The notes: generated by a model from the letters alone, not told the origin. Positions 2,730-58,578 are shown, counted from the first letter of the stretch. The stretch: 64,000 bases of DNA from Patescibacteria group bacterium (GCA_041649475.1 JBAZNA010000001.1:197022-261021), one strand, 5' to 3'. Numbers and translations: made by a program.

Positions 2730-3035
2730 ATGGCGTATGCAGAAAAAAATTTAATAGATAAATTACAAGATGAGATTAGGAATAAGAAGGATAAACAAAT
2801 GGAGGGGTTACGCAGGGCTTTTGAAATTTCTTTTTGGAAATATTGGGATGATCATAGTGAATATCCTAATCTTAATAATGACCAGGATGTTAATCTTTAT
2901 CTTGAGGGCCGTCCAGATTTAAAAGCTGCTGTTTTTAAACTGGATTTGGTTTTGCCTAGAGTGAAAGAAATTGCTTTTGAAATTCTTGAGAATTTAAGGA
3001 AAACAGGGGTAAGAAAAGGTGCGAAGAAGAAATAA
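2730..3035 (+). CDS. hypothetical protein
   Basis: 101-aa ORF in an AT-rich stretch with no recognisable motif. Its 3' end overlaps the convergent ORF 2956..3156. Confidence 0.4.
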   Translation: MAYAEKNLIDKLQDEIRNKKDKQMEGLRRAFEISFWKYWDDHSEYPNLNNDQDVNLYLEGRPDLKAAVFKLDLVLPRVKEIAFEILENLRKTGVRKGAKKK

Positions 3036-3156
3036 GAGTTAAACAATTTCTAAAAATATTTTTAGTGGCCATACCCACTGTTTCACTGTGGTGGGCAACT
3101 CCAACAACTTCGTAAAGTTTGCCTTTGTAGCGCTCGTATTTGCCTAATTTTAGCAT
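2956..3156 (-). pseudogene. possible DUF1653-family remnant
   Basis: The N-terminus MLKLGKYERYKGKLYEVVGVAHHSET resembles the DUF1653 core (YRHYKG..YEV.GVA.HSET). After about 28 aa the similarity is lost, and the frame runs 80 nt into the opposite gene. Confidence 0.3.
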
Positions 3157-3162
3157 AAATAT

Positions 3163-4047
3163 TTACGCCATCCCTCTTAATTTTTTGATTCTGTCTTCAA
3201 TCGGCGGATGAGTGGAGAAAAGATTGGAAACTTTTTTACCGCTAAACGGGCTTGCCAGAAATAAATGGGCAGTGGCCTGATTGGCGTGTGCCAATGGTTG
3301 ATTTTCAGCCGCAATTTTTTCCAAAGCCCGAGCCAAACCTTCGGGATAGCGGGTGAGCAATGATCCGGAAGCATCAGCCAAATACTCTCGCCGGCGGGAA
3401 ATAGCCAATTTTATCAGTTCGGCAATAATTGGAGATAAGATCGCCAAGATAATTCCCACCACCATAAAGATAATGCCGAGATCTCCGCCTTCGCGGTTGT
3501 TGTTTCTTCTCGGCAGCCAACGGCTTCGTAAAAAAATATTTGATAAAATCGCAATTGCTCCCACCATCACCGCCACCAAAGTCATGAAGCGAATGTCATA
3601 GTTCTTAACGTGGGAAAGTTCATGAGCGATTACGCCTTCCAATTCTACGCTTTCTAATTTTTCAATCGCGCCGCGGGTGATGGCAATGGTGGCCATGTCC
3701 GGTTTGCGGCCCGTGGCAAAAGCGTTGATGGCAGGATCTTCCATTATGTATACCTTTGGCACCGGCAAACCGGCAGTGATGCATAAATTTTCAACCAGAT
3801 GATACACATATGGATTTTCATCATGTTCAATCGGGTGGGCGCCGTTTGTCCAAAGCGCAATTTTGTCGCCCTGGAAATATGAAATCGCCGTCATGCCCAG
3901 AGAAAAAATAATCGCAAAGAAAACACCGCCATAACTTCCGGAACCGGAGGCCTGATCAAACACAAACCCCAAAGCAATGATGACCACAATAAAAATCATC
4001 ATCAAAATTATGGATTTTCGTTTGTTGGAATCTATCTCGTTATACAT
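3163..4047 (-). CDS. htpX: M48 zinc metalloprotease HtpX
   Basis: 294-aa membrane protein with the HELSHVKNYD (HExxH) motif and typical HtpX topology. Confidence 0.85.
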   Translation of the reverse strand: MYNEIDSNKRKSIILMMIFIVVIIALGFVFDQASGSGSYGGVFFAIIFSLGMTAISYFQGDKIALWTNGAHPIEHDENPYVYHLVENLCITAGLPVPKVYIMEDPAINAFATGRKPDMATIAITRGAIEKLESVELEGVIAHELSHVKNYDIRFMTLVAVMVGAIAILSNIFLRSRWLPRRNNNREGGDLGIIFMVVGIILAILSPIIAELIKLAISRRREYLADASGSLLTRYPEGLARALEKIAAENQPLAHANQATAHLFLASPFSGKKVSNLFSTHPPIEDRIKKLRGMA

Positions 4048-4727: not shown

Positions 4728-6026
4728 ATGATTACCCTATTAATCTTTTTGGCCATCTTGGCAATTTTGGTTTTATCCCATGAATTTGGGCATTTTGTTG
4801 CCGCGCGCCGAAGCGGGATGAAGGTTTATGAGTTTGGTTTTGGCTTTCCGCCAAGGTTATTTGGCATCCAACTGCTCAAAAGCAGAAAACCGGCTAAAAT
4901 TGGTGAAATTCAAGAAACAGATATAAAAATTGAAGATATAAAAACAGCGGACGGCCAGGAGGTTGTGACCGAAACAGTGACGACAGACACTAAGACAATA
5001 GTTCAAACCACGAAAAAGTGGCGTTTTATTTGGTGGAATAAGGATGTTGTACCTGAAGAAGGAGACAGCACGCTGGAACATGGCACGGTTTATTCTTTTA
5101 ATCTGATTCCCCTGGGCGGTTTTGTGCGTATCAAAGGTGAAGAAGGCGACGAAACAGGTCCGGATAGTTTTAATACGCAAAAAACTTGGAAAAAGGCCAT
5201 CACGCTGGTTGCCGGCGTGGCCATGAATGTGGTTTTAGCCGCGATTTTGCTTTCAATCGGGTTTATGACCGGCATACCGCAAGCGGTTGATGATTCTACG
5301 GTTGGAGTGAGAAACAGGCACGTGGAAATCGTCCAGGTTTTGCCGGGCAAGCCGGCCGAGCTGGCTGGTTTAAAAGCCGGCGATGAATTTTTAAAAATTG
5401 ATAATATAAATTCTCCCAGTTCAAAACAATTGCAGGATTATTTAAATGCCAATAAAGATAAAAATATTAATGTCGTTGTAAACCGGAATGGCCAGCTTAT
5501 TACAAAAGATATTCATCCAATTATTTATCCGGATACGGGCAAGGCGGGTTTGGGTGTGTCCATAGTTGATGTCGGCGTGGTTGGTTATCCGTGGTATAAA
5601 GCCATATATTATGGAATAATAACCACCGGATTTTATTTGAAAGAAATCGTGTTGGCGTTTTACGGTTTGATTAAAGGGCTCTTTGTCGGCGCGCCGGTGG
5701 GTGATGCTGTTTCCGGGCCGGTGGGCATTGCGGTTATGACCGGGCAAGTGGCTAAACTTGGTTTTGCTTATTTGTTAAATTTTACCGCCTTATTATCATT
5801 GAATTTGGCAATCATAAATATTTTGCCGATCCCGGCTTTAGATGGCGGTCGGTTGTTATTTCTGGTAATCAATAAATTTAAACGCAAGCAAATTAATCCC
5901 AAGCATGAACAGTTGGCGCATACCATCGGTTTTGCCCTGTTGATGCTTCTGGTGGTGGTGGTGACGGTAAAAGACATCGGCGCGTTTAGCGGTTCAATCG
6001 TGAACTTCTTTAAAAATTTATTTTAA
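4728..6026 (+). CDS. rseP: M50 site-2 protease (RseP-like) with PDZ domain
   Basis: HEFGHF is near the N-terminus, a PDZ-like region follows (LPGKPAELAGLKAGDEF), and the C-terminus has LNLAIINILPIPALDGG. Confidence 0.85.
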   Translation: MITLLIFLAILAILVLSHEFGHFVAARRSGMKVYEFGFGFPPRLFGIQLLKSRKPAKIGEIQETDIKIEDIKTADGQEVVTETVTTDTKTIVQTTKKWRFIWWNKDVVPEEGDSTLEHGTVYSFNLIPLGGFVRIKGEEGDETGPDSFNTQKTWKKAITLVAGVAMNVVLAAILLSIGFMTGIPQAVDDSTVGVRNRHVEIVQVLPGKPAELAGLKAGDEFLKIDNINSPSSKQLQDYLNANKDKNINVVVNRNGQLITKDIHPIIYPDTGKAGLGVSIVDVGVVGYPWYKAIYYGIITTGFYLKEIVLAFYGLIKGLFVGAPVGDAVSGPVGIAVMTGQVAKLGFAYLLNFTALLSLNLAIINILPIPALDGGRLLFLVINKFKRKQINPKHEQLAHTIGFALLMLLVVVVTVKDIGAFSGSIVNFFKNLF

Positions 6027-6034
6027 TTTTAAAT

Positions 6035-7066
6035 ATGCAATCTAAACTGCAGAAATTAAAAACCGAAGCCCTGCTGGCGATAAAATCCGCAAAAGATAAA
6101 TTGGAAGTTGAGGCCTTGGAACAGAAATTATTCGGCCGCAAGGGCGGAGAGATGACGGATATCTTGAAAGGCATAAAAGATTTGAGCGAAGATGCAAAAA
6201 AAGAAATCGGGCAATTGGCCAATGAAGTGAAAAAAGAAATTGAAAACGCGCTGGCCGCAAAAAAACAAGAGGTTTTGTCAAAAAGTTTTGCCGGCGCCTT
6301 GGAAAAAGAGCGAGTGGATTTAACCCAGCCGGCTTTGCCGCATCAAGAACGCGGGCATCTTCATCCGGTGTCAGTAATTCAAAATCAGTTGGAGGATTTA
6401 TTTGCGTCAATGGGTTTTATGGTTTTAGACGGTTCGGAATTGGAAAGCGATTATTATAATTTTTCAGCGGTAAATATTCCGGAAGATCATCCGGCGCGCG
6501 ACATGCAGGATACTTTTTATATTAAAAACCATCCGGATTGGGTGATGCGAACCCACACTTCTTCAATGCAGGTGCGGGGAATGCAAAAATACGGCGCGCC
6601 GCTTCGGGCGATTATTCCGGGCAAGTGTTACCGGAATGAAGCCACCGATGTCAGGCATGAACACACCTTTTATCAAATGGAGGGGTATGTTGTTGATAAA
6701 AATATCAACTTCGGGCACATGAAAGCGGTTTTGGAAACCGTGGCCAAAAATTTGTACGGCGCGGAAACCCAGGTTCGGCTGCGGCCGAAGTTTTATCCGT
6801 TTGTGGAGCCGGGCGTCAACGGCGAAGTGACTTGTTTTTTGTGTCATGGCAACGGTTGCCGGTTGTGTAAAAACAGCGGCTGGCTGGAGATTTTTGGCGC
6901 CGGTATGATTCACCCCAATGTTTTAAAAGAAGCCAATATTGATTCGAAAATTTATTCCGGTTTTGCTTTTGGCTTTGGTCTCACCCGTTTGGTGATGCTT
7001 AAATACGGCATTGAAGACATCCGCCTGCTCCAAAGCGGGGAGATGAAATTTTTAGAACAATTTTAA
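6035..7066 (+). CDS. pheS: phenylalanine--tRNA ligase alpha subunit
   Basis: 343 aa with class II aaRS motifs (HPARDMQDTFY, FRNE-like CYRNEATDVRHEHTFYQMEG, GFAFGFGLTRL). Confidence 0.95.
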   Translation: MQSKLQKLKTEALLAIKSAKDKLEVEALEQKLFGRKGGEMTDILKGIKDLSEDAKKEIGQLANEVKKEIENALAAKKQEVLSKSFAGALEKERVDLTQPALPHQERGHLHPVSVIQNQLEDLFASMGFMVLDGSELESDYYNFSAVNIPEDHPARDMQDTFYIKNHPDWVMRTHTSSMQVRGMQKYGAPLRAIIPGKCYRNEATDVRHEHTFYQMEGYVVDKNINFGHMKAVLETVAKNLYGAETQVRLRPKFYPFVEPGVNGEVTCFLCHGNGCRLCKNSGWLEIFGAGMIHPNVLKEANIDSKIYSGFAFGFGLTRLVMLKYGIEDIRLLQSGEMKFLEQF

Positions 7067-7084
7067 CTTTCTTTCACACAGAAT

Positions 7085-10032: not shown

Positions 10033-10046
10033 AGTTGCCTCCTATC

Positions 10047-10075
10047 TTGACAAAAAAATATTTTTAGTGTATTCT
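10047..10075 (+). promoter_or_regulatory. candidate promoter of GC-rich gene 1 (TTGACA-N17-TATTCT)
   Basis: The -35 hexamer is perfect and the -10 is moderate. The 5' UTR is about 70 nt and contains small hairpins. Confidence 0.4.
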
Positions 10076-10149
10076 TGGTGATTATTCCTTAGGTAAGGAA
10101 GCCCGGACCATTCCGGTTCGGGTATGATGATAGAGGAAGGAGAAAAAAG

Positions 10150-10497
10150 ATGGGAATGCGCGCGAAGGACTGGGAGGCGGCCCAGGCCGTTTTCTTGAAA
10201 GAGGCCGGTGCCGACCCTGACCCCGACGATTCGTGGACCGTAGTTCGGTCGCCGAGTTTGCAGGAGCTTCTGCTGGCAAAGGAGCAGGAGTTCCCGGTTG
10301 AGCTCGAGCTCTCCGACGGCCGCAAGATGACCGTGTTCGTCGAGGATATCAAGGACCCCGACGCGCACGGCGAAGTGGAGGTGTACGTAATGTACGTCGC
10401 CAACGGCAACCGGCGCCGGCGGTACCTGCACTTCACCCCCGACGTCTACGAGCCCAGGGTCAACGTCTACCCCGAGCCCAAGGAATCCGTGGGCTGA
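10150..10497 (+). CDS. GC-rich orphan protein 1 (115 aa, acidic, no recognised domain)
   Basis: AGGAG lies 7 nt before the ATG. Hand count gives 38/60 G+C in the first 60 nt. Third codon positions in this frame are overwhelmingly G/C. The gene has its own promoter and terminator. Confidence 0.65.
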   Translation: MGMRAKDWEAAQAVFLKEAGADPDPDDSWTVVRSPSLQELLLAKEQEFPVELELSDGRKMTVFVEDIKDPDAHGEVEVYVMYVANGNRRRRYLHFTPDVYEPRVNVYPEPKESVG

Positions 10498-10520
10498 CCC
10501 CACTTCCTCCCTCGTCTCAC

Positions 10521-10548
10521 GCCCAAGCATCTGCTTGGGCCTTTTTTT
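10521..10548 (+). terminator. intrinsic terminator
   Basis: Hairpin gcccaagc-atct-gcttgggc followed by cttttttt. Confidence 0.8.
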
Positions 10549-10549
10549 G

Positions 10550-10578
10550 TTGATTTTGTTATGGCTTTCGGGTAAGAT
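10550..10578 (+). promoter_or_regulatory. candidate dnaE promoter (TTGATT-N17-TAAGAT)
   Basis: The -10 ends only 9 nt before the dnaE ATG, which implies a very short leader or none. Confidence 0.4.
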
Positions 10579-10587
10579 ACGAGCACT

Positions 10588-13500
10588 ATGCCCGACTTTG
10601 TTCACCTCCATGTCCACAGCCATTATTCGCTTTTAGATGGCCTGCCAAAAATTGACGAGCTAGTTAAGCATGCCAAAAGTTTGGGCATGACTGCCCTTGC
10701 CCTCACCGATCATGGTAATATGTATGGCGCCATTGAGTTTTATGAGCGGTGTCAGAAAGAGGGAATAAAACCGATCATCGGCATGGAGGCATACTTGGCT
10801 CCGGGCAGTCGTTTTGATAAAAATCAAAATGACAAGTATTATCATCTGGTGTTGTTGGCTTTGGATTATACCGGTTATAGAAATTTGATGAAGCTGGCTT
10901 CGCTGGCTCATCTGGAGGGGTTCTATTACAAACCCCGTGTTGATAAAGAACTTCTAAAACAATATCATGAAGGTTTGGTTGCTTCATCTGCCTGTTTTGG
11001 CGGCGAGATTCCTTGGATTTTGCGCAAAGAAGATAATTTTGAGAAAGCCAAAAAAGTGGCGTTGGAATACGAAGAAATTTTTGGCAAAGGAAATTTTTAT
11101 CTGGAACTGCAGGACTTGCCGGGTTTGGAAGGTCAGATGGAGATGAATACAAAATTAATTAAGCTTTCCCAAGATACTGGCGTCCCGCTTATTGTCACCC
11201 GTGACGTGCATTATTTGAAACCGGAGGACGCCGAAGCCCAGGATATTTTAACCTGCATCCGCGACGGCCGGACTTTGGATGAACCCAATCGCCAGACCAT
11301 GAATGCGGTTGATTGTTCAATGGCTAGCGTCAAAGAAATCGCCGGCCGCTTTAAACATATTCCTGAAGCATTGGAGAACACGGTTAAGATTGCCGAAAGA
11401 GCGAATCTGGTTTTAGAACTTAATAAATGGCATTTTCCGCCTCTTGAGCTTCCGGTCGGGCAGACCGCCGACAGTTATTTGCGCGAGCAGGTTTATGAAA
11501 GATTGCCGAAGCTGTTGCAGATAACCGAGGAGGTGAAAAAAAGAGTTGACTATGAGTTGGAAATTATCGCCAAAAAAGGTTATTCTCCGTATTTTTTAAC
11601 AGTTGCCGATTATGTGCAGTATGCGCGCGACCACGGCATTGCCGAAACGACCAGGGGCTCGGCTGCTGGTTCAATCGTTTCTTACGCTATAGGAATCGTC
11701 ACTGTTAATCCGCTGTATTTCAAATTGCCGTTTGAAAGATTTTTAAATCCATTCCGTCCCAGCCCGCCGGATATTGACGCGGACTTCGCCGACGACCGCC
11801 GCGACGACATGATTGCTTATGTCACGCAAAAATATGGTGCGGACAAAGTGGCGCAGATTATTACCTTCGGAACGATGATGGCGCGCGGAGCGGTGCGCGA
11901 TGTGGGCCGAGCGCTGGGCTATACCTATTCTTTTTGCGATCAGATTTCAAAAATGATTCCTTTTGGCGCGCAGGGTTTTCACATGAATATTGCCAAAGCC
12001 ATGGAGCTGGAGCCGGATTTAAAAAAATTATACGATCAAAATCCGCAAGCCCACCGTTTATTGGATTTGGCGCAAAAAGTGGAGGGCTGCGCCCGACACA
12101 CTTCCATACACGCGGCCGGAGTGGTGATTTCACCGACGCCGCTTACGGATTTTACTCCGGTTCAGCGCGAAACCGGCGGTGAGAGAATTACCACTCAATA
12201 TGAAATGCACGCGGTGGAGGCGGCTGGAGTTTTGAAAATGGACTTTTTGGGGATCCGCAATTTATCTATTTTGGGTCATGCCGTGGAAATTATAGAAAAA
12301 ACAACCGGCCAGAAAATTGATATCTACAAATTGCCCTGGGATGACAAAAAAACCTATGAAATGCTGGCGCGCGGTGAAACTATCGGTGTGTTCCAGCTTT
12401 CCGGATCTGGCATGACCAGATATTTGAAAGAATTAAAGCCGGCCAGCATCTTTGATATTATGGCCATGGTGGCACTGTTTCGCCCCGGGCCAATGGAATC
12501 AATTCCCGAATATATAAAAAGAAAAAATCATCCGGAACTGATTGAATATCTTGATCCGCGCATGGAAAATTATCTTGATCAGTCCCTGGGCTTGATTGTT
12601 TATCAGGACGACGTTTTGCTTACGGCTATAAATTTGGCCGGATACAATTGGGAGGAAGCGGATAAATTCAGAAAAGCGATGGGCAAGAAAATTCCGGAAG
12701 AAATGGCCAAGCAGAAAGAGAAATTTTTTAAGGGCTGCCGTGAATTCGGGCATTTGTCCGAAGCAAAAATCAACACCCTGTGGGAACGCATTGAGCCGTT
12801 TGCCGCTTATGGTTTTAACAAGGCCCATGCCTGCAGTTATGGAGTTGTGGCCTATCAGACCGCCTATCTGAAAGCTAATTTTCCGGTGCAGTATATGACC
12901 GCGATTTTGATTGCGGAAAGCGGCGACATTGATAAAGTGCCGGAAATTATTCATGAGTGCGAGAGAATCGGCATAAAGGTCTTACCGCCCGATGTTAATG
13001 AAAGTTTTAAAAATTTCGCCATGATTTCGCCGGAAGACGGATCCGAGCCGCACATTAGGTTCGGTTTAAACGGCATAAAAAATCTGGGCGAGCATATTGC
13101 CGAAGTGATTTACCGCGAACGCAAAGAACATGGCACGTATAAAGACCTGCAGGATTTGCTCACGCGTGTAAATGATAAGGATTTAAACAAAAAGTCCCTG
13201 GAAAGTTTGGCTAAATGTGGCGCGCTTGATTGTTTTGGCCATGACCGGGGATTGCTTTTGGCCAACACGGACAACCTTTTGGGTTTTGTCAGGCAGATGC
13301 ATGAGAAAACCCAATCAAACCAGAATTCGCTTTTTTCAGGCACAACGATTGATTTGTCCGCCAAAGTTCAGCTTAATCCGGCGCCCCTGGCCGATGAAGC
13401 CGACAAGCTGATTTGGGAAAAAGAATTGCTGGGACTCTTCGTCACTTCCCATCCATTTAAGTATTTTGAAAAAATTATGAACGGCGTGCTGACACCGATT

Positions 13501-17840: not shown

Positions 17841-18014
17841 ATGACCAAACATCAAGGCGTCTCAAGCGGAATCTACGGCCTGGCATTCATCGGCGCTCTT
17901 ATTTATTATATCCAACACGCCACCACATTCTGGATGGGCGTGCTGGGATTTTTGAAGGCCCTGGTTTGGCCGGCATTTTTGATTTATAAATTGTTGGAAT
18001 TTTTACACATGTAA
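17841..18014 (+). CDS. small (57 aa) two-TM membrane protein
   Basis: My own translation: MTKHQGVSSGIYGLAFIGALIYYIQHATTFWMGVLGFLKALVWPAFLIYKLLEFLHM. It is below the 60-aa track cutoff. An extended -10 TGATATAAT lies at 17791..17799. Confidence 0.6.
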   Translation: MTKHQGVSSGIYGLAFIGALIYYIQHATTFWMGVLGFLKALVWPAFLIYKLLEFLHM

Positions 18015-18020
18015 ATATAA

Positions 18021-18055
18021 AGATCCTGTTGCTTCGCAAGCAGGATCTCTTTTTC
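18021..18055. terminator. bidirectional intrinsic terminator
   Basis: agatcctg..caggatct stem with an inner ttgc/gcaa extension, followed by a T-run. It sits between convergent genes. Confidence 0.75.
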
Positions 18056-18073
18056 TCCTTTCACATTATCCTT

Positions 18074-18400
18074 TCACAGGACCACTTCTTCGTAGTAGTC
18101 GGCCCGCTCGTGGCTAGCGTAGGGGCTTGATTTGGCATCCTTGAGCGCAGCTGCGGCGAACGGTTCGTCTATGGTGACCTCGGCAACGTTCTCGCACTTG
18201 GCGATCAACAGCTGACAACCATCACAGCCGAATCCGGTCACGGTTGCCAGAACCAGCGCCTCCTTGATCTTCGGTACCCGGCCCTCTTTGCGGATGGCTT
18301 CGGCCACATCGGCCGCGTTTTCTCCACCGCAGTCGGTCCAGAACTTGAAAACAACCTCATCACCCTTGCGCACACTAACGAGTCCGGTTTTTCCGTGCAT
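18074..18400 (-). CDS. GC-rich orphan protein 3 (108 aa; contains a CDGC CxxC motif)
   Basis: AAGGAGG lies 6 nt before the ATG, and the SD starts on the stop codon of the upstream low-GC oxidase gene (cctAAGGAGGggtgatATG). G+C rises abruptly at this junction. Confidence 0.6.
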   Translation of the reverse strand: MHGKTGLVSVRKGDEVVFKFWTDCGGENAADVAEAIRKEGRVPKIKEALVLATVTGFGCDGCQLLIAKCENVAEVTIDEPFAAAALKDAKSSPYASHERADYYEEVVL

Positions 18401-18411
18401 ATCACCCCTCC

Positions 18412-19713
18412 TTAGGTAACTTTACATGTTTTTTCATAAAGATCAAGAAAAATATCCTCCGGGTCAGTTTTCTTTTTAACCGCGTAATAATTATCTTTGT
18501 TCCAGGTTTTCCAAAAGTCATCTTCCGAATAATAGTTGGTGGAAATCAAGGTTTTGATGCCGCCAATAGCCATCAATTCTTCCTCAAACATTTTGTAATA
18601 GTTTTTGTCCGGCCGTTTTGGCAGTCCGTAGATGGCCAGATCTAAAAACAACTCGTCTTTCATTTTTTCAAAAAATTCTCCGGAAATCCATTCATAATGC
18701 CGGGCAATTTTATAAGGCACGCACCATAAAGGGAAAAAATTTATCTCTTTTTCATACCATTTCATAAAATTTTCACCTTCAGAAAACGGGATGAAGGTGT
18801 CAACCGTTACTGGTATCTTATCAGCCGGGATAACTTTGCGAAATTTTTGCACCAGTTTTAATAAGCTTGAAGAATTAATAAATTTACCAAAAAACAAACG
18901 TCCCAGAAATGATTTTGGGGTGACATTGGTCACACCTTTGTCATAGCGGAAAAAATAATCAATGGTTTTAAGATAATCTTCTTTTCGTATTTTTGTGCTT
19001 TTATAATATACCCTCATCCAGTCATAACTGTGGGTGTAGGGCGCCGTGTCAACAAAATTTCCTGTACTTAATACTAACTCGGTGGGGGAATGGATTATAC
19101 CATCCATAAAATCAACATCTTTTTTGGTGTAGTGATCCCAGATGGTAGCTTTATACTCCTTAATATCCACACATTTTTGATAAGTGACTTTAACAAACGG
19201 CTTGGCCGGAACCAATCTGAATTTGAGTTTAGCCAGAAGGCCCAAAGTGCCAAAGGTGCCGTGTATCATTTGAAATAATAAACTGTTGTCATTATCCGGA
19301 GAGCAGGTCAGAACCTCGCCTTGCGCGGTAATAATCTCATATTCCAGACAAGTGTCGTGGAAACCCCCATATTTGTATGACATTGATTCTAATGAACAGC
19401 CGGAAACCGCGCCACCGATGGTAATTGTTTTCAGTTCCGGTACAACAATCGGCACCAGGCCATATTTCAGAGTGGCTGTTGCCAAATCTACAAAAGTTAC
19501 GCCTGATTCGGCAACACAAGTCCGCGCATCAGGGTCAATACTGATAATTTCATTTAAATCACTGATGTCAATTTCTTCATTCCAGTATTTCTGTTCTTCA
19601 GGTTTGGGCACTACATGAGAAACCGCTTTCTTTTTAAATAATACCGGCTTGCCGTTTTTGTGCGCTTTCAGCTGTCCGGCAATTCTTTCAATTTTTTGTG
19701 CATGAGTTATCAT
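18412..19713 (-). CDS. FAD-binding (PCMH-type) oxidoreductase, DHCR24/DWARF1-like
   Basis: 433 aa. ITIGGAVSGCSLESMSYKYGGFHDT and GTFGTLGLLAKLKFRLVP resemble FAD_binding_4 family proteins. Confidence 0.75.
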   Translation of the reverse strand: MITHAQKIERIAGQLKAHKNGKPVLFKKKAVSHVVPKPEEQKYWNEEIDISDLNEIISIDPDARTCVAESGVTFVDLATATLKYGLVPIVVPELKTITIGGAVSGCSLESMSYKYGGFHDTCLEYEIITAQGEVLTCSPDNDNSLLFQMIHGTFGTLGLLAKLKFRLVPAKPFVKVTYQKCVDIKEYKATIWDHYTKKDVDFMDGIIHSPTELVLSTGNFVDTAPYTHSYDWMRVYYKSTKIRKEDYLKTIDYFFRYDKGVTNVTPKSFLGRLFFGKFINSSSLLKLVQKFRKVIPADKIPVTVDTFIPFSEGENFMKWYEKEINFFPLWCVPYKIARHYEWISGEFFEKMKDELFLDLAIYGLPKRPDKNYYKMFEEELMAIGGIKTLISTNYYSEDDFWKTWNKDNYYAVKKKTDPEDIFLDLYEKTCKVT

Positions 19714-25822: not shown

Positions 25823-25865
25823 AAATGATTTTAGTTTTTTAAATTCGGTTGAATACATTATAACA

Positions 25866-25903
25866 TAAAAAAAGAGGCAATTCCACCGGCGGCAGAACTG
25901 CCT
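25866..25903 (-). terminator. intrinsic terminator of GC-rich gene 4
   Basis: On the minus strand: aggcagttc-11 nt loop-gaattgcct followed by cttttttt. Confidence 0.65.
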
Positions 25904-25928
25904 TGAAACCTTCTTCTGGTCTTCCTCC

Positions 25929-26282
25929 TTAGGTGTCAACCGTCTCCACCGGAGGGTTGGGCACTGTTGGCCCCCAGAGAGGGACGAATTCCGTGCTCTG
26001 GAAGTTCTTGCGACACAACTCTTCAAGACCAGGGGTATCGCCATCGTAGATGACCCGGGAGGCCGTAATCACGGCCCGATCCTGCTTGGACCCGAACCCC
26101 ATCTGGGCGGCCAAGTTGTAGGCGTTCCTAGCCGAAGGGGCTTCACCGTTTTTTTGCACTTCCGCGCGAATTGCGTCAGCAAAACGCTTGGTGAGATTGC
26201 CGCCGCGGCCAACCACAACTTTCATCAAAACCACGTCGCCTCGGAAAACGATGACCATTCCCGGAACAGCAGTCGTGGACAT
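25929..26282 (-). CDS. GC-rich orphan protein 4 (117 aa; N-terminal block similar to orphan 3)
   Basis: AAGGAGG lies 7 nt before the ATG. The gene has its own promoter and terminator. It shares 13 of 33 ungapped identities with the 18074..18400 product. Confidence 0.65.
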   Translation of the reverse strand: MSTTAVPGMVIVFRGDVVLMKVVVGRGGNLTKRFADAIRAEVQKNGEAPSARNAYNLAAQMGFGSKQDRAVITASRVIYDGDTPGLEELCRKNFQSTEFVPLWGPTVPNPPVETVDT

Positions 26283-26318
26283 GGAGAATCCTCCTTATCG
26301 CAAACAAAGCGATGTTCA

Positions 26319-26347
26319 ATTTTAACATGGGAATTTGCCAGTGTCAA
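26319..26347 (-). promoter_or_regulatory. promoter of GC-rich gene 4 (TTGACA-N17-TAAAAT)
   Basis: rc reads ttgaca ctggcaaattcccatgt taaaat. Confidence 0.6.
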
Positions 26348-26361
26348 GATTCGTAAATAAC

Positions 26362-28562: not shown

Positions 28563-28591
28563 ACTATAGCACTAAAGAGGTGTTTTGTCAA
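28563..28591 (-). promoter_or_regulatory. strong promoter TTGACA-N17-TATAGT (extended TGc)
   Basis: rc reads ttgacaaaacacctctttagtgctatagt. This is identical to the rnpB promoter at 26 of 29 positions. Confidence 0.65.
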
Positions 28592-28801: not shown

Positions 28802-29440
28802 TTATGTTAAATTTATTGCGTTTTTTAAATAGTTTTCACCAATAGCCGTCCGTTCCAGTTCCTCGCAGTAAGCGCCAATGCCGAGTTTTTCGCCAATATC
28901 ATTGGCCAGGGAACGGATGTAGGTGCCTGTAGAGCATTTTACCTCAATTTTTAGAATTGGCCAAGAGTAGTCAAGCAGGTTGATTTCGTAAATTTCAATT
29001 TCGTTGGGCTGACGTTCAATTGTTTTGCCCTGTCTGGCCAGTTTATACAAACGCTGGCCGTTGATTTTTTTGGCTGAAAACATCGGCGGGGTTTGCAATT
29101 GTTTGCCGATAAAAGATTTTAAAATTGATGAGATGGTTTTTTTATCTGGAATTTTGGTTGGGTCTTTGGTTGGGTTTTGGTATTCGGAAATTTTGCCGGT
29201 CTTGTCATAAGTGTCAGAGGTTGCACCGAGTTTAATGGTGGCAATATATGTTTTCGGCAATTGTTTGAATTCATCCAATTTTTTAGTGCAGTCGCGGCCG
29301 ACGCCGACAATCAAAAGACCGGTCGCGAACGGATCAAGGGTGCCGGCATGACCAACTTTGATTTTTTTGTCGGTCCGGATATGCGCCACTACATCATGAC
29401 TGGTCCAGCCGGCGGGTTTGTTGATAAATAGAAATGGCAT
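28802..29440 (-). CDS. truB: tRNA pseudouridine(55) synthase
   Basis: NKPAGWTSHDVV and GHAGTLDPFATGLL (catalytic Asp motif). Confidence 0.9.
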   Translation of the reverse strand: MPFLFINKPAGWTSHDVVAHIRTDKKIKVGHAGTLDPFATGLLIVGVGRDCTKKLDEFKQLPKTYIATIKLGATSDTYDKTGKISEYQNPTKDPTKIPDKKTISSILKSFIGKQLQTPPMFSAKKINGQRLYKLARQGKTIERQPNEIEIYEINLLDYSWPILKIEVKCSTGTYIRSLANDIGEKLGIGAYCEELERTAIGENYLKNAINLT

Positions 29441-29473
29441 ACTATCCCTGCATTATAAACATAATTTTAAAAT

Positions 29474-29504
29474 AAAAAAAGAGCTTCCCTGGGGAGGGAA
29501 GTTC
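29474..29504 (-). terminator. intrinsic terminator of GC-rich gene 5
   Basis: On the minus strand: gaacttccct-cccc-agggaagctc followed by ttttttt. Confidence 0.75.
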
Positions 29505-29580
29505 AGTGGGGGTTGGCTCCGGTGTGATCGCCTGATGGCGAATTGGAGCACGGTAGGAAAGAGCAGGGCGGGGCGGCTGG

Positions 29581-29922
29581 CTAGCCGGCGGCGGAAGCGG
29601 CGATGGGGGCGATCTTGGGCTGGATGTCGATCACGGGGATCGGCTCGGGCAGACCGTCGAAGCGCTGGCGGAGCCAGTCGATCTCGGGCTCCGAGGCCTC
29701 GCCCATGAAGATCTCGATGTAGAACGTCCCCCTGATGAGGCCCTCGTACTTCAGCTTGAAGCCGGGGATCTCGTCGTCGAAGTCGGCCTTGTGCGGCCTG
29801 TTGACGTACCTGTTGAAGTCGTTGAGCGAGCAGTACCTGACGCTGCCGTCCACGAACTGGATCCGTACGGCCCTTGTCTGCAAGGTCGTGTCCGGGAACG
29901 TCATCAGCTTCTGGATCGGCAT
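29581..29922 (-). CDS. GC-rich orphan protein 5 (113 aa, no recognised domain)
   Basis: AAGGAG lies 6 nt before the ATG at 29922 (MPIQKLMTFPD...). The longer track ORF start has no SD. Confidence 0.6.
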   Translation of the reverse strand: MPIQKLMTFPDTTLQTRAVRIQFVDGSVRYCSLNDFNRYVNRPHKADFDDEIPGFKLKYEGLIRGTFYIEIFMGEASEPEIDWLRQRFDGLPEPIPVIDIQPKIAPIAASAAG

Positions 29923-30037
29923 CTCCCTCTCCTTGGGACTACGAGCTCGTGTGACCATCTTGTTATGCCTCCCTTGTTTCCGTGTTGGGCCCAATGCCCC
30001 TAAACTTGTTGGCCTTGTCCAGGCCGTGATGGGCTAA

Positions 30038-30066
30038 ATGGTATCACAATAATACGATTATGTCAA
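30038..30066 (-). promoter_or_regulatory. candidate promoter of GC-rich gene 5 (TTGACA-N17-TACCAT)
   Basis: It lies back-to-back with the infB promoter and implies a GC-rich 5' UTR of about 108 nt. Confidence 0.45.
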
Positions 30067-30082
30067 GAAGAATGGCCAAAAA

Positions 30083-41855: not shown

Positions 41856-41884
41856 TTGACCAATTGTCTTTTTTATGCTAAAGT
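41856..41884 (+). promoter_or_regulatory. promoter of GC-rich gene 6 (TTGACC-N17-TAAAGT)
   Basis: ttgacc aattgtcttttttatgc taaagt. The 5' UTR contains the hairpin cctgcc-agagaaa-ggcagg. Confidence 0.55.
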
Positions 41885-41931
41885 ATGTGGTTCCTGCCAG
41901 AGAAAGGCAGGTCAGAAAGGAGGCCTCTCGG

Positions 41932-42312
41932 ATGACACGGGTCATGAGTTTGATGGCTTTCTACGCGACTTATCGTCTCTTAAAGGTCGCGTACCGTGCG
42001 ACCGAGAGACAGCTTAGGCTATTCTTCGTCCCCAAGCCGGGGTGCGAGGGGGCCTACGAGGTGGATGAGCAAATCTTCGCCAAGGTTCGGACGCTCATCG
42101 TCAATTCCAGGTCGTTTCAGACCGAAATCTACCCGCTGAACGCCAGTGACGTGGGGGAAGATTTCCGCCTTGGCGACCAGGATTTCACCGGCTCGGTGAT
42201 GGTCTGGCTGAAGGAAGTAGATCCTTTAGACGCACTGTTTACCGACAGAATCAAGGAGGTTGTGTTCGGAGAGGAGAAAGAGTATCGCTTTCAGTGCGGT
42301 TCCCGCAACTAG
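41932..42312 (+). CDS. GC-rich orphan protein 6 (126 aa, no recognised domain)
   Basis: AAGGAGG lies 8 nt before the ATG at 41932 (MTRVMSLMAFY...). The earlier track start lies inside the promoter. Confidence 0.6.
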   Translation: MTRVMSLMAFYATYRLLKVAYRATERQLRLFFVPKPGCEGAYEVDEQIFAKVRTLIVNSRSFQTEIYPLNASDVGEDFRLGDQDFTGSVMVWLKEVDPLDALFTDRIKEVVFGEEKEYRFQCGSRN

Positions 42313-42406
42313 CATCTGGGCGCTCATCTTCACTCCTCTCCGGGCGCCTTTACTACTTGGACTCGGATTGGTATAATATATTTACTAAAATTTAATTTTA
42401 TATCAT

Positions 42407-54261: not shown

Positions 54262-55680
54262 TTATAGGGAGCCGGTTTTTCTGATGACAACAAAAGGTGT
54301 TTTAATTAGAATTATGAGATCTAAAAATAAACTCCAGTTTTCTATATAAAATGTGTCCAGCTTTATTTCTTCTTCATAGCTTAAATTGCTGCGTCCGGAA
54401 ATTTGCGCCAAGCCGGTGATACCGGGTTTGATTTCTAAAACTATTTTATGCTTTCTTTCGTAATTTTCAACCTCCCGGGGCTGGTGCGGACGCGGGCCGA
54501 CCAAACTCATTTCACCTTTGAACACATTAAAGAATTGTGGCAATTCGTCTATGCTCCAGCGGCGGATAAACCGGCCAAACGGAGTGACACGCGGGTCATT
54601 TTTGATTTTGTAAATCGGACCGTTTTTTATGCTTTGTTTTTTGATCAGTTCCTGTTCTTTGGCCAAAGCCACGGTGGAAGCTTTTTTGCCAAACTGAATG
54701 CCGTTTGAATCTTTTTGATACATTGATCGAAATTTTAGCGTGAAGAATTTTTTATCGGCTTTGCCGACTCTTTCATTTTTGTAAATCACCGGCCGGCCGG
54801 TTTCAATTAAAATTATTAAAGAGATAATTAAATAAATTGGAGAGAGGATAATTATAAAAAATATACTGCCGATAATATCTATTAGTCGTTTGAAAATTCT
54901 GCCCCAACCCGTCAGCCGCGTTAAGCGCAGTTCAATAATCGGAATGCCGGTGATGGTGGAAACGGCCATGTTGGTGGAAATGGTTGAAAACAAATCAGCT
55001 GAATATTTGAAAGCGATGTGATGTTCGTTGGCAAAATCAATTGCTTCCAACGCCTCTTTTTCATTAGCTTTCGGATCCGTAAAAATTATTTCGTCCGGTT
55101 TTAGTTTTAAAATTGTTGGTTCGCTGGCGACATCAAAACCATCGTAGGTGGCCACCACTTTATAGCCAAATGACTTGTTGAGTAGTGATTGCTTGATTTC
55201 CTGGCCGATAATTTCTTTGCCGATAATAATTGTGCGGCGTAGTCCTACGCCGGCTTTGTGTAGCCAGATTTTTAAACCGGCGGTGAGGATGCGCCCCAGT
55301 GACACAAAGATAATGGCTAAAATCCAACCGACCAAAACCAAAAATCTGGAATCAAATTTTTGCAAGGTGAAAAAAACATAAATGGTGATGCCGGCAAAAC
55401 CGGTGGCGGTGGCCATGACCACTCGGGTGAGATCGCGGGCGAGCTTGCGGTTGGGGTTGGTGCTATATAACCCGGATAAAGCAAAAATAATAATCCAGGC
55501 CGCGGCTGTAAGCAAGACCAATGGCCAGTATCTTTGCCAGGAAAGATTAAACAAAACCGGCCGGATGGCTTTGGCAAAATCAGCAAAGCGAAGCGTGTAG
55601 GCAGTAAAGCCGGCCAGTATCAGCAGGGCAAAGTCAAGAGGAAGTTGGAGTAAGGTAAAAAAGAGTTCAAATTTTTTCAT
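54262..55680 (-). CDS. polyprenyl-phosphate glycosyl-phosphotransferase (bacterial sugar transferase, WbaP-like)
   Basis: Multi-TM N-terminus and a C-terminal sugar-transferase domain (DELPQFFNVFKGEMSLVGPRP). I moved the start to MKKFELFF at 55680. The 115-codon extension in the track is antisense to the GC-rich island. Confidence 0.85.
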   Translation of the reverse strand: MKKFELFFTLLQLPLDFALLILAGFTAYTLRFADFAKAIRPVLFNLSWQRYWPLVLLTAAAWIIIFALSGLYSTNPNRKLARDLTRVVMATATGFAGITIYVFFTLQKFDSRFLVLVGWILAIIFVSLGRILTAGLKIWLHKAGVGLRRTIIIGKEIIGQEIKQSLLNKSFGYKVVATYDGFDVASEPTILKLKPDEIIFTDPKANEKEALEAIDFANEHHIAFKYSADLFSTISTNMAVSTITGIPIIELRLTRLTGWGRIFKRLIDIIGSIFFIIILSPIYLIISLIILIETGRPVIYKNERVGKADKKFFTLKFRSMYQKDSNGIQFGKKASTVALAKEQELIKKQSIKNGPIYKIKNDPRVTPFGRFIRRWSIDELPQFFNVFKGEMSLVGPRPHQPREVENYERKHKIVLEIKPGITGLAQISGRSNLSYEEEIKLDTFYIENWSLFLDLIILIKTPFVVIRKTGSL

Positions 55681-55734
55681 AGTTGTGGGCGCGGTGCGCT
55701 TAGGTTGAGTATATTTTACGCCAACTGCCCAACA

Positions 55735-55763
55735 TTGACAAGAGAGCTGTTTTAGTGTTAATT
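55735..55763 (+). promoter_or_regulatory. candidate promoter of GC-rich gene 7 (TTGACA-N17-TTAATT, with TG upstream)
   Basis: Its -35 hexamer overlaps, on the opposite strand, the -35 of a TTGTCA-N17-TAAAAT promoter (55713..55741) that faces the sugar-transferase gene. Confidence 0.45.
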
Positions 55764-55838
55764 TAACGTGCTGTGGCGAAACCATTCTGGCCAAGCCCGA
55801 CAGCGTCTGTAAACACGGTCGTATAAAGGAGACAAAAC

Positions 55839-56504
55839 ATGGCGACCGCAAAACAGATTCCGTTTTTGATGGGAAGGTTGGTGGAGCATCAGTTTTACTT
55901 CTGTGCTTTGTCCACCGCAAGCGCCACGTGGGCGAGCCAAAACCCGAAAGACGCCATTGCCTTGTGCGTGGCGGCGATCGAGAATCGCCAAAAGGAGCGT
56001 CAGTCCGACCCGGCGCCTTCGCCACTCCTCACCTTGGTCGGTGCCGTCGTGATCTGGCTGGCCGTGAGGTTCGTTGCCAGTGAACACCTGGTGAAGAATA
56101 CCGAGAAGAACGCGCCGGTGAAGATTTCCTACATCTTCGATAAGGTCACCGTGTGGTTCCAGGGCAAGATCGAGGAGCGGGTCGAGGGCGAGATGGCTCT
56201 GTGCTGCCATACCCTGAACTCCGACTCGGACGATAACCTCATCATCAACCAGCTCGGCGGCGAGACCAAGGCCGAGACCGCCCTTGCCGAGGTCTTTGCC
56301 TGCTTGGAGAAGCAACCCAACGGCGAGGATGGTGCGCTACTCACTAACGGCCACGCGAACATCTTCTATGTTCGCAACACCGAAGGTGTGTTGTGCGTGA
56401 TCCAAGTGATCTGGCGCGGTGACGGTTGGACCTTCTACACCCGTTCGGTCGGTTCTCTGGACACATGTACCGAGGGCCGCCGGGTGTTCTCCCGCGCCGC
56501 ATAG
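55839..56504 (+). CDS. GC-rich orphan protein 7 (221 aa; one hydrophobic segment LLTLVGAVVIWLAVRFVA)
   Basis: AAGGAG lies 7 nt before the ATG. A strong terminator follows the gene. No recognisable domain. Confidence 0.6.
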   Translation: MATAKQIPFLMGRLVEHQFYFCALSTASATWASQNPKDAIALCVAAIENRQKERQSDPAPSPLLTLVGAVVIWLAVRFVASEHLVKNTEKNAPVKISYIFDKVTVWFQGKIEERVEGEMALCCHTLNSDSDDNLIINQLGGETKAETALAEVFACLEKQPNGEDGALLTNGHANIFYVRNTEGVLCVIQVIWRGDGWTFYTRSVGSLDTCTEGRRVFSRAA

Positions 56505-56524
56505 TTTGTTCCTTCCTTCCAAGC

Positions 56525-56556
56525 GCCCCGCCTGTCAGATGGTGGGGCATTTTTTT
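56525..56556 (+). terminator. intrinsic terminator
   Basis: gccccgcc-tgtcagat-ggtggggc followed by attttttt. Confidence 0.8.
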
Positions 56557-56565: not shown

Positions 56566-56594
56566 TTGACAAAACCCCTCATTTGTGCTATAGT
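56566..56594 (+). promoter_or_regulatory. rnpB promoter (TTGACA-N17-TATAGT, extended TGc)
   Basis: ttgaca aaacccctcatttgtgc tatagt. The -10 ends 7 nt before the P1 stem. Confidence 0.65.
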
Positions 56595-56600
56595 TAACCC

Positions 56601-56994
56601 ATTCATAGCGGATGATCGAGCCGACTTAGTCGGCTAGGAAAGTCCGAACACCCAAGATGGCAGTGGGTAACGCCCACCGCTACGGTGGCAACGCCGTGGT
56701 TGGGAAAGTGGCACAGAGACAATTCTAACCCCGACAAGCTCGGGGTAAAAGGTGAAAAGTGTATGGGGGATTTGGTTCTCGAGACCAAAGCTACTATACT
56801 CGGCTGATAGCAATATCAGTTCGTGCTAAACCCTGCCTGGTGCAAGAGCAGCGTTTCGCGGCGCAAAACCGCGGTTCGAAAAGTTCGCTCGCTAGAACGC
56901 GTTAGCAATAACGCGTCCAGATAAATGATCGTCACCTCGCCCCATTTTTAAACAAAATGGTGCGGAGCACAAAATTCGGCTTATAGCTATGAAT
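56601..56994 (+). ncRNA. rnpB: RNase P RNA (bacterial type A)
   Basis: P1 pairing attcatagc/gctatgaat. P4 strands GGAAAGTCCGAACAC and ACAAAATTCGGCTTAT. Also GGGTAACGCCCAC, GGGAAAGTGGCACAGAGA and AGATAAATGATCG. Confidence 0.9.
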
Positions 56995-57024
56995 AAAAAA
57001 GACGACCCGCAAGGGCCGTCTTTT
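56995..57024. terminator. bidirectional intrinsic terminator
   Basis: aaaaaa gacgaccc-gcaa-gggccgtc tttt, between rnpB (+) and the convergent 57040..58578 gene (-). Confidence 0.75.
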
Positions 57025-57039: not shown

Positions 57040-58578
57040 TTATGATGTTCCCGGCGCCATCGTTGGTTGCTGTTGCATCATCGGCTGTTGTGGTTGTTGT
57101 GGCATGTATTGTTGCATTCCCTGCGGCATTTGTACTTGTTTAAATTGTTGCGGCCCTTGTTCCCAAGGCATTATTTCTCCTTCTTGTCCGGTCAGTTCAT
57201 TAACCTTATTGCCAAAATCCTGTCTTAAATTTTCTAAGTCATCCAGGGCTGATGTAATCGTATCAACATCATAATTTTTACTCGCAATCAAATCTTTTAT
57301 TTCCTGTCCTTTTACTTTTATTTCATCCAGAATTGGTACAAGTTCGGATGTGTCTATCTTCTTTTTCTTTAATTGATTGATTGTTTGTTGCGCTTGATTG
57401 ACACTTTGTTTAAAGGTGGAATTGAAACTGCCCAGGTTACCCATCATCATTATAATCTGGTCATTCTGCATTATGTCATCCATTTGGCCGAAGAAATCAT
57501 TTTCCACGGTATCAAACGCGCCCTGTGAATCATCGGTGGCCATTTTGCTTACCGCGTCCGCTTTAACCGCTTTGAGTTTATTAACCGCCTCTTCAAATGC
57601 GTTGTAAACACTTTGGATGTCTATGCCCTTCTTAACTAATTTATCAGTGATTTGTTTGGCGCGTTTGAGCTCACGGGTAAGCATGGTGAGCTGTTTGTCC
57701 ATCTGTTTTAAGGTTTGCGGCCAGCGAGCCAGCATCTCCAGTGTCTGACGGTCTTGGTTTAAATTTTCCATTGCTTCAGACATTGAATTGAAATCAATAT
57801 CATTCAACTGATCGGCGGTGGTCGCGTTTTTTATACTGTTAATAATATTCCTTAGGTTAAGAATATTTTCTTGGGTGTTGGTCGGAATGGATATTTTTTG
57901 TTTTTGGAATTTGGCCACTTGTTTTTCAAACATATTAAGCTGCGATTCCATGCCTTTGATATTTCGTTTCATGTCCTGCAATCTTTGGTTTGCCTGAAAA
58001 ACATCCTGCCTATATTGGTCTAAGGATTGTGACAGATCCTGCATCTCGCCCATATCAACATTTTGCATTTCTTCCATGGTGCTCACATTGGAAGCGGCCG
58101 CGACCAAATCTTTTAATTTAACCAAATTTTGTTTGATATCATCCGGTACGGTGATTCCGCTTTTCTCCGATTGGGCTATCATCCGGTCGTATTCTTTAAT
58201 GGATCGTTGCAGTTGTTTTATACTATTTTTTATTTGTTTAAGCTGTTGTTCCGGACTTGGACCATAATTCGGTTGTTGCGGCGGCTGTTGTGGGGGTTGT
58301 GGTTGTGGCTGTGGTTGTGGCTGTGGTTCAGGACCCGGCTGTTGCGGGCCAGGGTTGGGCTCCGGAGATGGTTGAGGTGGAGTCGGGGGAGTTGGTTCGG
58401 GGGGAGCCGGAGCAATGACTTGTTGCTCTTCCGCTGAAGTATTGTTGGTGCCTAGCGTGCTTAAAAAGTTTTTTAATATTTGCGGAAGTTCTATATAAAA
58501 AGCTTTGGCTGGCATGGCAAATGAAAAAGTCACGGCCATGGCCACGGTTAGAATAGAAATGTTTATTATTTTTTTCAT
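57040..58578 (-). CDS. secreted coiled-coil protein with Pro/Gln-rich low-complexity regions
   Basis: Signal peptide MKKIINISILTVAMAVTFSFAMPAKA, then PEPTPPTPPQPSPEPNPGPQQPGPEPQPQPQPQPQPPQQPPQQP, a long Q/N/K-rich helical region and a Q/M/P-rich C-terminus. Confidence 0.6.
   Translation of the reverse strand: MKKIINISILTVAMAVTFSFAMPAKAFYIELPQILKNFLSTLGTNNTSAEEQQVIAPAPPEPTPPTPPQPSPEPNPGPQQPGPEPQPQPQPQPQPPQQPPQQPNYGPSPEQQLKQIKNSIKQLQRSIKEYDRMIAQSEKSGITVPDDIKQNLVKLKDLVAAASNVSTMEEMQNVDMGEMQDLSQSLDQYRQDVFQANQRLQDMKRNIKGMESQLNMFEKQVAKFQKQKISIPTNTQENILNLRNIINSIKNATTADQLNDIDFNSMSEAMENLNQDRQTLEMLARWPQTLKQMDKQLTMLTRELKRAKQITDKLVKKGIDIQSVYNAFEEAVNKLKAVKADAVSKMATDDSQGAFDTVENDFFGQMDDIMQNDQIIMMMGNLGSFNSTFKQSVNQAQQTINQLKKKKIDTSELVPILDEIKVKGQEIKDLIASKNYDVDTITSALDDLENLRQDFGNKVNELTGQEGEIMPWEQGPQQFKQVQMPQGMQQYMPQQPQQPMMQQQPTMAPGTS
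58296..58328. repeat. hexanucleotide tandem repeat (TGGTTG/TGGCTG x about 5) encoding (PQ)n
   Basis: gttgtggttgtggctgtggttgtggctgtggtt inside the 57040..58578 CDS. Confidence 0.7.

Follow-up and report, generated by a model that had tools for sequence, protein, structure and literature searches.

The DNA analyzed here is a 64-kb window of a 963-kb contig from a Patescibacteria group bacterium (GCA_041649475.1), and the gene in question is an open reading frame (ORF) of 221 codons that lies in a GC-rich cassette between a sugar-transferase gene and rnpB, the gene of the RNase P RNA (Table 1). The negative results given below for the window as a whole reach from −55 kb to +7.5 kb relative to this gene. 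The GC content of the ORF is 0.589, and 0.784 at third codon positions (GC3), compared with a window mean of 0.435, and the composition jumps abruptly from 0.43 to 0.60 at the cassette. A prior reading of the window made from the bases alone (referred to here as the sequence-only reading) had described a GC-rich cassette with a 221-residue product at this point, and its coordinates and composition proved accurate. Its statement that no domain can be recognized also holds for Pfam, NCBIfam, and PHROGs, in which scans of the ORF and ten homologues gave nothing beyond one chance match at E = 0.1; yet homologues with an informative genomic context exist. A profile search of PDB sequences with the family gave nothing meaningful.

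Homologues of the 221-residue protein and their genomic context

A protein search returned ten homologues (P0002 to P0011) at 41-49% identity, and six of them had usable genomic context among the loci L001 to L008. In five of these six, an RVT_1 reverse transcriptase (RT) is located 0.8-1.8 kb downstream, and bAvd was called in three of the five loci. The distance is 0.8-0.9 kb for P0006 (L001), P0009 (L006), P0003 (L007), and P0002 (L008), with bAvd called in L001 and L006. At these same four of the six loci, a second copy of the 3'-terminal 107-117 nt of the gene (approximately 36 codons) follows approximately 0.3-0.5 kb downstream. Where the two copies mismatch, the template copy carries an adenine at 17 of 17 positions in L001, 18 of 20 in L006, 21 of 21 in L007, and 16 of 17 in L008. 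What defines a diversity-generating retroelement (DGR) is a variable region (VR) in a target gene that is paired with a template repeat (TR), with mismatches at the adenines of the template. Because the mismatches fall almost only at template adenines, the loci of the relatives are identified as DGRs, and their gene order is target, TR, Avd on the opposite strand, and RT.

The 221-residue protein is homologous to these proteins with TR-paired 3' ends, and the end of its gene corresponds to their VRs, including the terminal stretch GGTGTTCTCCCGC, which is conserved at the DNA level. In an alignment of 157 family members, the entropy exceeds 3.2 bits at columns 189, 191, 193, 198, 200, 202, 206, 208, 211, and 214, and it is 0.65 or lower at W192, G196, W197, A201, W210, V216, F217, and S218. 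The hypervariable columns have AAY codons of the TRs as their template and are interleaved with a near-invariant scaffold (W192, G196, W197, A201, W210, and VFSR), and the window protein has this C-terminal arrangement at residues 189 to 214. The sequence-only reading had noted a Gly/Trp-containing region at the C terminus, which is indeed present, and had missed that it is the variable region of a DGR target. The matter was decided by the genomic context of the homologues, and on this basis the 221-residue ORF belongs to a Patescibacteria DGR variable-protein family.

By an exhaustive profile search, this family has 3,741 representatives (clustered at 50% identity) in Patescibacteria at E ≤ 1e-3, of which 927 are retained at E ≤ 1e-30. 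The family core comprises approximately 160 residues, corresponding to profile positions 57 to 221. The family is not phage-borne, because the viral collection gave one weak partial match only. P0132 (926 residues) contains the domain of approximately 160 residues in five tandem matched stretches, and P0133 (379 residues) contains it in two. The target of another DGR locus (L094, 2601-2801) has an N-terminal stretch like that of P0006 (33% identity over 79 residues) together with a different VR domain, which suggests modular shuffling of the N-terminal and VR domains.

Clade-2 DGR targets of the Candidate Phyla Radiation (CPR) are without transmembrane segments or known domains (PMC8144416, Roux et al. 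2021). The window protein is similar to the Patescibacteria/CPR clade-2 targets (PMC8144416; PMC5758913) in its host lineage, its small size, the absence of a Pfam domain, and the probable absence of a signal peptide and a transmembrane segment; the C-terminal VR ending in VFSR and the order of the genes in its relatives are also the same. It differs from them in that no TR, Avd, or RT accompanies it in the 64 kb and in that its VR scaffold carries substitutions that are not of the adenine type.

Table 1. Coordinates of the 221-codon gene, its variable region, and the surrounding features in the window
Feature	Coordinates	Strand	Basis or remark
ORF, 221 aa, assigned to the Patescibacteria DGR variable-protein family	55839-56504	+	gene call
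Counterpart of the DGR variable region, codons L185-R219: LCVIQVIWRGDGWTFYTRSVGSLDTCTEGRRVFSR	56391..56495	+	codon-for-codon alignment with the VR/TR pairs of L001, L006, L007, and L008
N-terminal helical region of the 221-aa protein	residues about 1-55		
Conserved domain of the 221-aa protein	residues about 57-221		
Cassette promoter-like site: -35 TTGACA(A) 55735-55741, 18 nt, extended -10 TGTTAATTT 55756-55764	55735..55764	+	read from sequence
5' untranslated region (UTR), about 70 nt	55765..55838	+	read from sequence
UTR 14-mer GTCTGTAAACACGG	55805-55818	+	also in the UTR of the closest relative, L008 (approximately 4950-4965)
Shine-Dalgarno site AAGGAG	55826-55831	+	7 nt ahead of the ATG
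Terminator-like GC-rich hairpin and T-run	56525..56556	+	hairpin 56525-56548, 20 nt past the stop codon
Sugar-transferase gene, 472 aa, CoA_binding_3 and Bac_transf	54262..55680	-	gene call and Pfam matches in L010; left neighbor, outside the cassette
Sugar-transferase promoter-like site: -35 TTGTCA 55741..55736, 17 nt, -10 TAAAAT 55718..55713	55713..55741	-	scan, 10/12
rnpB promoter TTGACA-17-TATAGT	56566-56594	+	11/12, with TG
rnpB (RNase P RNA)	56600-56999	+	RF00010, 175 bits; right neighbor, outside the cassette

Probable loss of diversification in the window copy

Neither a cognate TR nor a nearby DGR-clade RT or Avd was found in the window. A tblastn search of the window with the RT and Avd of L001 gave a best E value of 0.1 over 29 residues, so that neither protein was located, and no stretch of the window obeys the rule that every base be either the VR base or an adenine, the best non-self candidate showing 34 violations in 124 nt. 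The window also contains no repeat of the VR and no paralogue of the 221-codon gene.

The VR itself deviates from the family at its scaffold. At the 17 VR columns with a consensus of at least 70%, the window protein differs from the consensus at 7, whereas the family mean is 2.35 (standard deviation, 1.72), 6 of 157 members reach 7, and the verified active targets deviate at 1-2. At the nucleotide level, 40 positions hold one and the same base, other than A, in all four verified TRs; the window differs at 8 of them, and 5 of these differences change the residue (R186C, V188I, V199F, A201T, and W210C). P207L, which was scored against three TRs, is a sixth residue change in the VR scaffold. All but one of the eight scaffold changes in the window are from G/C to A/T, and adenine mutagenesis can account for none of them. 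In active VRs, the differences from the other TRs lie mostly at the third base of a codon. From the absence of a TR, Avd, and RT in the 64 kb and the excess of ordinary substitutions in the VR scaffold, we infer that this copy has most likely been orphaned. With a probability of roughly 0.6 to 0.65, the window gene would be an orphaned, frozen DGR target. No new mechanism comes to light: this is a known kind of gene, a CPR-type DGR variable protein without its retroelement, and not a new system.

In the working copies, the TR located 0.3-0.5 kb downstream would be transcribed, and the adjacent RT together with Avd would copy it into cDNA, misreading its adenines. The cDNA would then replace the last approximately 110 bp of the target gene, i.e., the VR. 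About a dozen codons with an AAY template would be randomized in this way, on the face by which a C-type-lectin-like domain binds its ligand. At the window locus, only the target gene is present. Its product would be a soluble, cytoplasmic, ligand-binding protein that is still expressed, has a fixed specificity, and is no longer diversified.

A separation of target and retroelement is also suggested at other loci of the family. At L002 (5001-7080; also at L003), P0011 lies upstream of a DGR whose TR (6943-7080) matches the VR of an unrelated target gene (5994-6596) and not that of P0011, which is thus an apparent orphan beside a working retroelement after target replacement. P0010 has no RT within 5 kb. 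A search of Joint Genome Institute (JGI) contigs for close orthologues or VR alleles of the window gene returned two distant fragments only.

Several points weigh against an orphaned and frozen copy. The sequence read covers 64 kb of the 963-kb contig, and a cognate TR and RT could sit elsewhere on it. The "VR base or A" pattern, by which the VR is found when the window is scanned, did not find even the VR itself in genome_contigs and metagenome_contigs; these collections therefore do not contain the genome, and their scans are uninformative. Two RT searches, of which the first used a profile built from four RTs linked to the family and the second the RT of a Candidatus Magasanikbacteria DGR (L026, described below), each show the best 120 of more than 8,000 matches. 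The scaffold deviations could equally belong to a divergent, functional TR, and five other family members also deviate at 7 scaffold columns. Finally, the intact frame, the strong Shine-Dalgarno site, and the confident model indicate that the ORF is under some selection, and on these grounds a frozen gene and a rarely diversified one are indistinguishable.

The first of these points leads to the explanation that the DGR of this genome (RT, Avd, and TR) is located outside the window and diversifies the gene in trans, in which case the odd scaffold residues would be those of its own TR. DGR components can work in trans, and non-adjacent targets have been assigned to 45 of 372 DGRs (PMC5758913). 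Such an arrangement would also agree with the intact ORF, with the conservation of the VR-end DNA and of the downstream hairpin as in active relatives, with the diversified look of the residues at the hypervariable columns (Q, I, R, T, Y, R, S, D, T, and R), and with the great frequency of DGR RTs among Magasanikbacteria-type genomes. However, CPR DGRs usually have a single adjacent target, and remote targets at more than 100 kb are described only in another lineage (PMC5758913, Wu et al. 2018). Known remote targets, e.g., the seven of Treponema, resemble the window gene in being VR-bearing genes away from any RT, but what defines them is a TR elsewhere in the same genome that matches exactly apart from A-to-N differences (PMC5758913), whereas the window gene has no such match within 64 kb. 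The machinery is missing over the entire distance covered on both sides of the gene, and the scaffold changes in excess are non-synonymous and not of the adenine type. Moreover, the window protein is alone in its 90%-identity cluster, and the record thus contains no variants of its VR. Among the 240 RT relatives listed (the best 120 of more than 8,000, twice), none is on a contig of the same length as that of the window, which is a weak point. We regard an active target served from a distance as possible but doubtful.

Another explanation is that the gene is left over from a DGR that was lost, is decaying, and is no longer useful or expressed. The missing machinery in the window and the unusual deviation of the VR scaffold, including the changes W210C and V188I, which are unique and affect near-invariant residues, are in line with a relic of this kind, as is the G/C-to-A/T drift, which is expected for amelioration in a genome of 43% GC. 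Against it stand a frame that is unbroken over 221 codons, a GC3 that is still 0.78, an intact AAGGAG site, promoter-like site, and terminator, and the confident model. In addition, the deviation outside the VR is ordinary: the window protein differs at 9 of 48 consensus columns, and 38 of 157 members differ at as many or more. A non-functional relic is accordingly rated as unlikely, and less probable than a target diversified in trans; an orphaned target that is still under some selection is the reading that we retain.

Predicted fold, hydrophobic segment, and promoter region

The AlphaFold2 model of the 221-residue protein, built on an 11-sequence alignment, has a predicted local distance difference test (pLDDT) score of 82.3, and most 10-residue blocks between residues 61 and 220 score 86-96. 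The sequence-only reading had proposed a structural homology search; Foldseek against the PDB gave nothing significant, and the predicted fold weakly resembles C-type-lectin/FGE-like proteins, including two solved DGR variable proteins with C-type-lectin folds, TvpA of Treponema denticola (PDB accession number 2y3c) and Mtd of a Bordetella phage (1yu0). Also compared were the FGE-sulfatase/DUF323-type C-type-lectin-like domains of EgtB (6o6l), PorK (9mzu), PvdO (5hha), and an FGE paralogue (1y4j); unlike these, none of 11 family members is matched by the Pfam FGE-sulfatase model, even at E ≤ 1. The model weakly suggests that the conserved domain takes a divergent C-type-lectin-like fold.

The sequence-only reading had noted one hydrophobic helix in the product and had proposed that polymerase binding for the cassette and for the sugar-transferase operon is coupled or mutually exclusive through overlapping -35 boxes; on this view, the product would be a novel single-pass membrane protein of no known family. 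The hydrophobic segment, LLTLVGAVVIWLAVRFVA (residues 63 to 81), is present, and its Kyte-Doolittle score over 19 residues (KD19) of 2.19 is strongly hydrophobic, the fifth highest of 157 family members. Its Hessa sum of +0.64 is borderline and does not favor insertion. As for the helix, residues 64 to 74 are modeled as a β-strand (block pLDDT of 86-92) that is the first strand of the conserved domain, which is present five times in P0132, and the family consensus at this segment is T-V-x-I/V-P-T-T, i.e., polar and T/P/T-rich in most relatives. The strand in the model, the tandem repetition of the domain, and the polar alignment of the relatives argue against a membrane anchor. On the other hand, membrane association may occur in the family: P0157, P0256, and P0232 have strongly hydrophobic N-terminal segments (residues approximately 5-35; KD19, 2.35-2.70; Hessa sums, -1.2 to -3.9), and some members, in contrast to the window copy, may thus be anchored in the membrane or exported.

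The two -35 hexamers, TTGACA on the plus strand (55735-55740) and TTGTCA on the minus strand (Table 1), lie where the sequence-only reading had placed them and have 5 bp in common. The orientation had been called face-to-face; the promoters are in fact divergent, i.e., back-to-back. The overlap arises because the near-palindrome TTGACAA/TTGTCAA yields both boxes automatically. Both of the proposed -10 hexamers are also found at their positions, 17 nt from the -35 boxes, but the one on the plus strand, TTAATT (55758-55763), matches TATAAT at only 3 of 6 positions and has no A at position 2, and the plus-strand promoter of the cassette falls below the threshold of the consensus promoter scan. 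An extended -10, TGTTAATTT, with an 18-nt spacer is the more credible reading.

A promoter-like site of the form TTGACAA-N16-18-(TG)nTAnnnT is located 90-194 nt upstream of the ATG in five of the six family genes and in the unrelated DGR target of L026; no site of this form was found upstream of the family gene of L006. In the window, TTGACAA is observed 15 times, compared with 13.4 expected, and the composite ATTTTA-N16-TTGACA has 2 exact matches and 4 with at most one mismatch, compared with about 1 expected. Neither motif is enriched beyond chance, and the support for the two promoters is thus comparative and not statistical. The -10 of the sugar-transferase gene (ATTTTA on the plus strand) stands at a similar upstream distance in most of 56 relatives inspected. 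The arrangement ATTTTA-N16-TTGACAAG is also present in L014, L021, and L034, all of which are without the cassette, and in L021 and L034 the plus-strand TTGACA sits upstream of rnpB. It follows that the overlapping -35 pair is not the cassette-specific device that it had been taken for; judged by position, the -35 of the cassette abuts the sugar-transferase promoter. With the weak consensus of its plus-strand promoter added to the points on the hydrophobic segment, a membrane protein with coupled transcription is very improbable at this locus.

From its layout, the cassette looks like a complete transcription unit with a promoter, UTR, Shine-Dalgarno site, ORF, and terminator hairpin. The strong terminator that the sequence-only reading had placed ahead of the rnpB promoter is borne out: its stem of 8 bp (7 of them G-C) and loop of 8 nt, followed by TTTTTTT, agree with the criteria for intrinsic terminators. 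A GC-rich hairpin with a T-rich stretch is located 25-50 nt past the stop codon in all six relatives (L001, L002, L004, L006, L007, and L008), and a strong Shine-Dalgarno site precedes all six family genes examined and the target of L026. Long 5' UTRs of about 60-160 nt are observed in five of the six family genes examined, and the 14-mer GTCTGTAAACACGG is common to the UTRs of the window gene and of L008 despite only 47% protein identity. The 5' UTR of the family genes may contain a regulatory RNA element.

The rnpB promoters of relatives are of the same type as that of the window, TTGACAAAA...TGCTAnnAT. The promoter region of rnpB in the window matches the minus strand at 28563-28591 at 26 of 29 nt, and the latter site, which also begins with TTGACAA, is probably another strong promoter of this type. 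Just past rnpB, the minus strand at 57040-58578 encodes a 512-residue protein with a signal-like N terminus, a P/Q-rich repeat (PQPQPQPQ...), and Q-rich ends, for which the precomputed annotation gives no Pfam match.

Insertion slot and GC-richness of DGR targets

The gap between the sugar-transferase gene and rnpB is 919 bp in the window. In relatives, rnpB is divergent from the sugar-transferase start at a distance of 62 (L034), 73 (L021), 114 (L019), or 213 bp (L061), with no ORF between them, which confirms that the cassette is wedged between these two genes, as the sequence-only reading had described it. Since the two genes directly adjoin in the relatives, the cassette is best explained as an insertion of approximately 0.8 kb. 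Among 80 species-representative loci with an orthologous sugar transferase (44-72% identity, mostly from Candidatus Magasanikbacteria), none has a member of the 221-residue family.

The same slot is occupied by other genes elsewhere. At L026 (Candidatus Magasanikbacteria, Kiruna bin; 1237-3743), it holds a complete DGR with target, TR, Avd, and RT. This target is unrelated to the window gene, encodes 201 residues, and has a GC content of 0.63, compared with 0.38 for the host; its VR/TR pair is 129 nt long, and 20 of 21 mismatches are at a template adenine. Other GC-rich ORFs (GC content, 0.57-0.65) are found in the slot at L030 (3118-3672, minus strand), L032 (3579-3905, minus strand), and L050 (2934-3809, minus strand), and the one at L032 ends in a VR-like, W/G/D-rich C terminus, ...CWRDGRWVEGWDWLDEDWGRGDRVLRRK. 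No TR or RT was found around these three ORFs within the 4 kb examined. Judged from these layouts, the gap between the sugar-transferase gene and rnpB is a recurrent insertion slot, i.e., a hot spot.

The abrupt change in composition at the cassette might raise the suspicion that a GC-rich fragment of another organism was spliced into the contig during assembly. The jump from 0.43 to 0.60 is sharp, but the same jump is seen at every DGR target examined in AT-rich hosts, in independent assemblies, and the junctions lie within a promoter and a terminator that are each coherent. In addition, a Logan assembly of SRR8542065 (L010) is 100% identical to the window over 8,753 bp, with the qualification that it possibly derives from the same reads. 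An assembly artefact is hardly credible, and it is the least probable of the explanations weighed here.

GC-richness is common to every DGR target examined in AT-rich hosts of these lineages. At L001, L007, L008, L026, L094, L095, and L096, the GC content of the target genes is 0.52-0.63, that of RT/Avd is 0.34-0.38, and that of the flanks is 0.37-0.43; the target ORFs measured were L001 6001-6621, L007 5001-5666, L008 5001-5636, L026 3138-3743, L094 2436-3173, L095 approximately 2490-3175, L096 approximately 2280-3120, and the window ORF. L026, L094, L095, and L096 are Magasanikbacteria-type DGR loci with other target genes, and the pattern is thus the same across unrelated target families. 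The TR, too, is GC-rich in the AT-rich hosts of L001, L007, and L008 and at these four Magasanikbacteria-type loci. Two explanations of the GC-richness were rejected. Avoidance of adenine on the coding strand is ruled out by the equal depletion of A and T, and recent import of a whole DGR from a GC-rich donor is ruled out by the RT and Avd, whose GC content is at or below that of the host.

The window contains five more GC-rich islands (10034-10713, 18005-18448, 25839-26354, 29319-30079, and 41870-42367), with a peak GC content of 0.57-0.66 in 300-bp windows, and these presumably belong to the other cassettes of the sequence-only reading. The ORFs at 18074-18400 and 25929-26282, both on the minus strand, are paralogues (38% identity over 58 residues; E = 7e-7). 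Pfam searches with four island ORFs, i.e., those of all islands except 10034-10713, gave nothing significant, and none of the five islands resembles the 221-residue family or its VR.

As a tentative proposal, the DGR targets of AT-rich Patescibacteria genomes may be recognizable by their composition, as GC-rich islands. Under this proposal, which we consider doubtful at present, an entire target ORF would keep a GC content of 0.52-0.63 irrespective of that of its host (0.37-0.43), target cassettes would move and persist apart from their retroelement and gather in hot spots, the other islands of the window would be stranded targets or targets served in trans, and the bias would stem from a mechanistic requirement or a by-product of retrohoming or from a shared mobile gene pool, and not from ordinary horizontal transfer. 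A possible simple screen would follow, in which a GC-rich island in an AT-rich CPR genome may flag a DGR target.

For the gene itself, an anonymous GC-rich hypothetical becomes interpretable as a CPR-type DGR variable protein that is probably cut off from its diversifier. The assignment is also of value for annotation, as the family has several thousand members and is without a Pfam or other curated model. At the recurrent insertion slot, targets and retroelements appear to turn over independently, and stranded targets beside intact ones, such as the window gene, P0010, and P0011, may allow binding sites that are diversified to be compared in nature with frozen ones.

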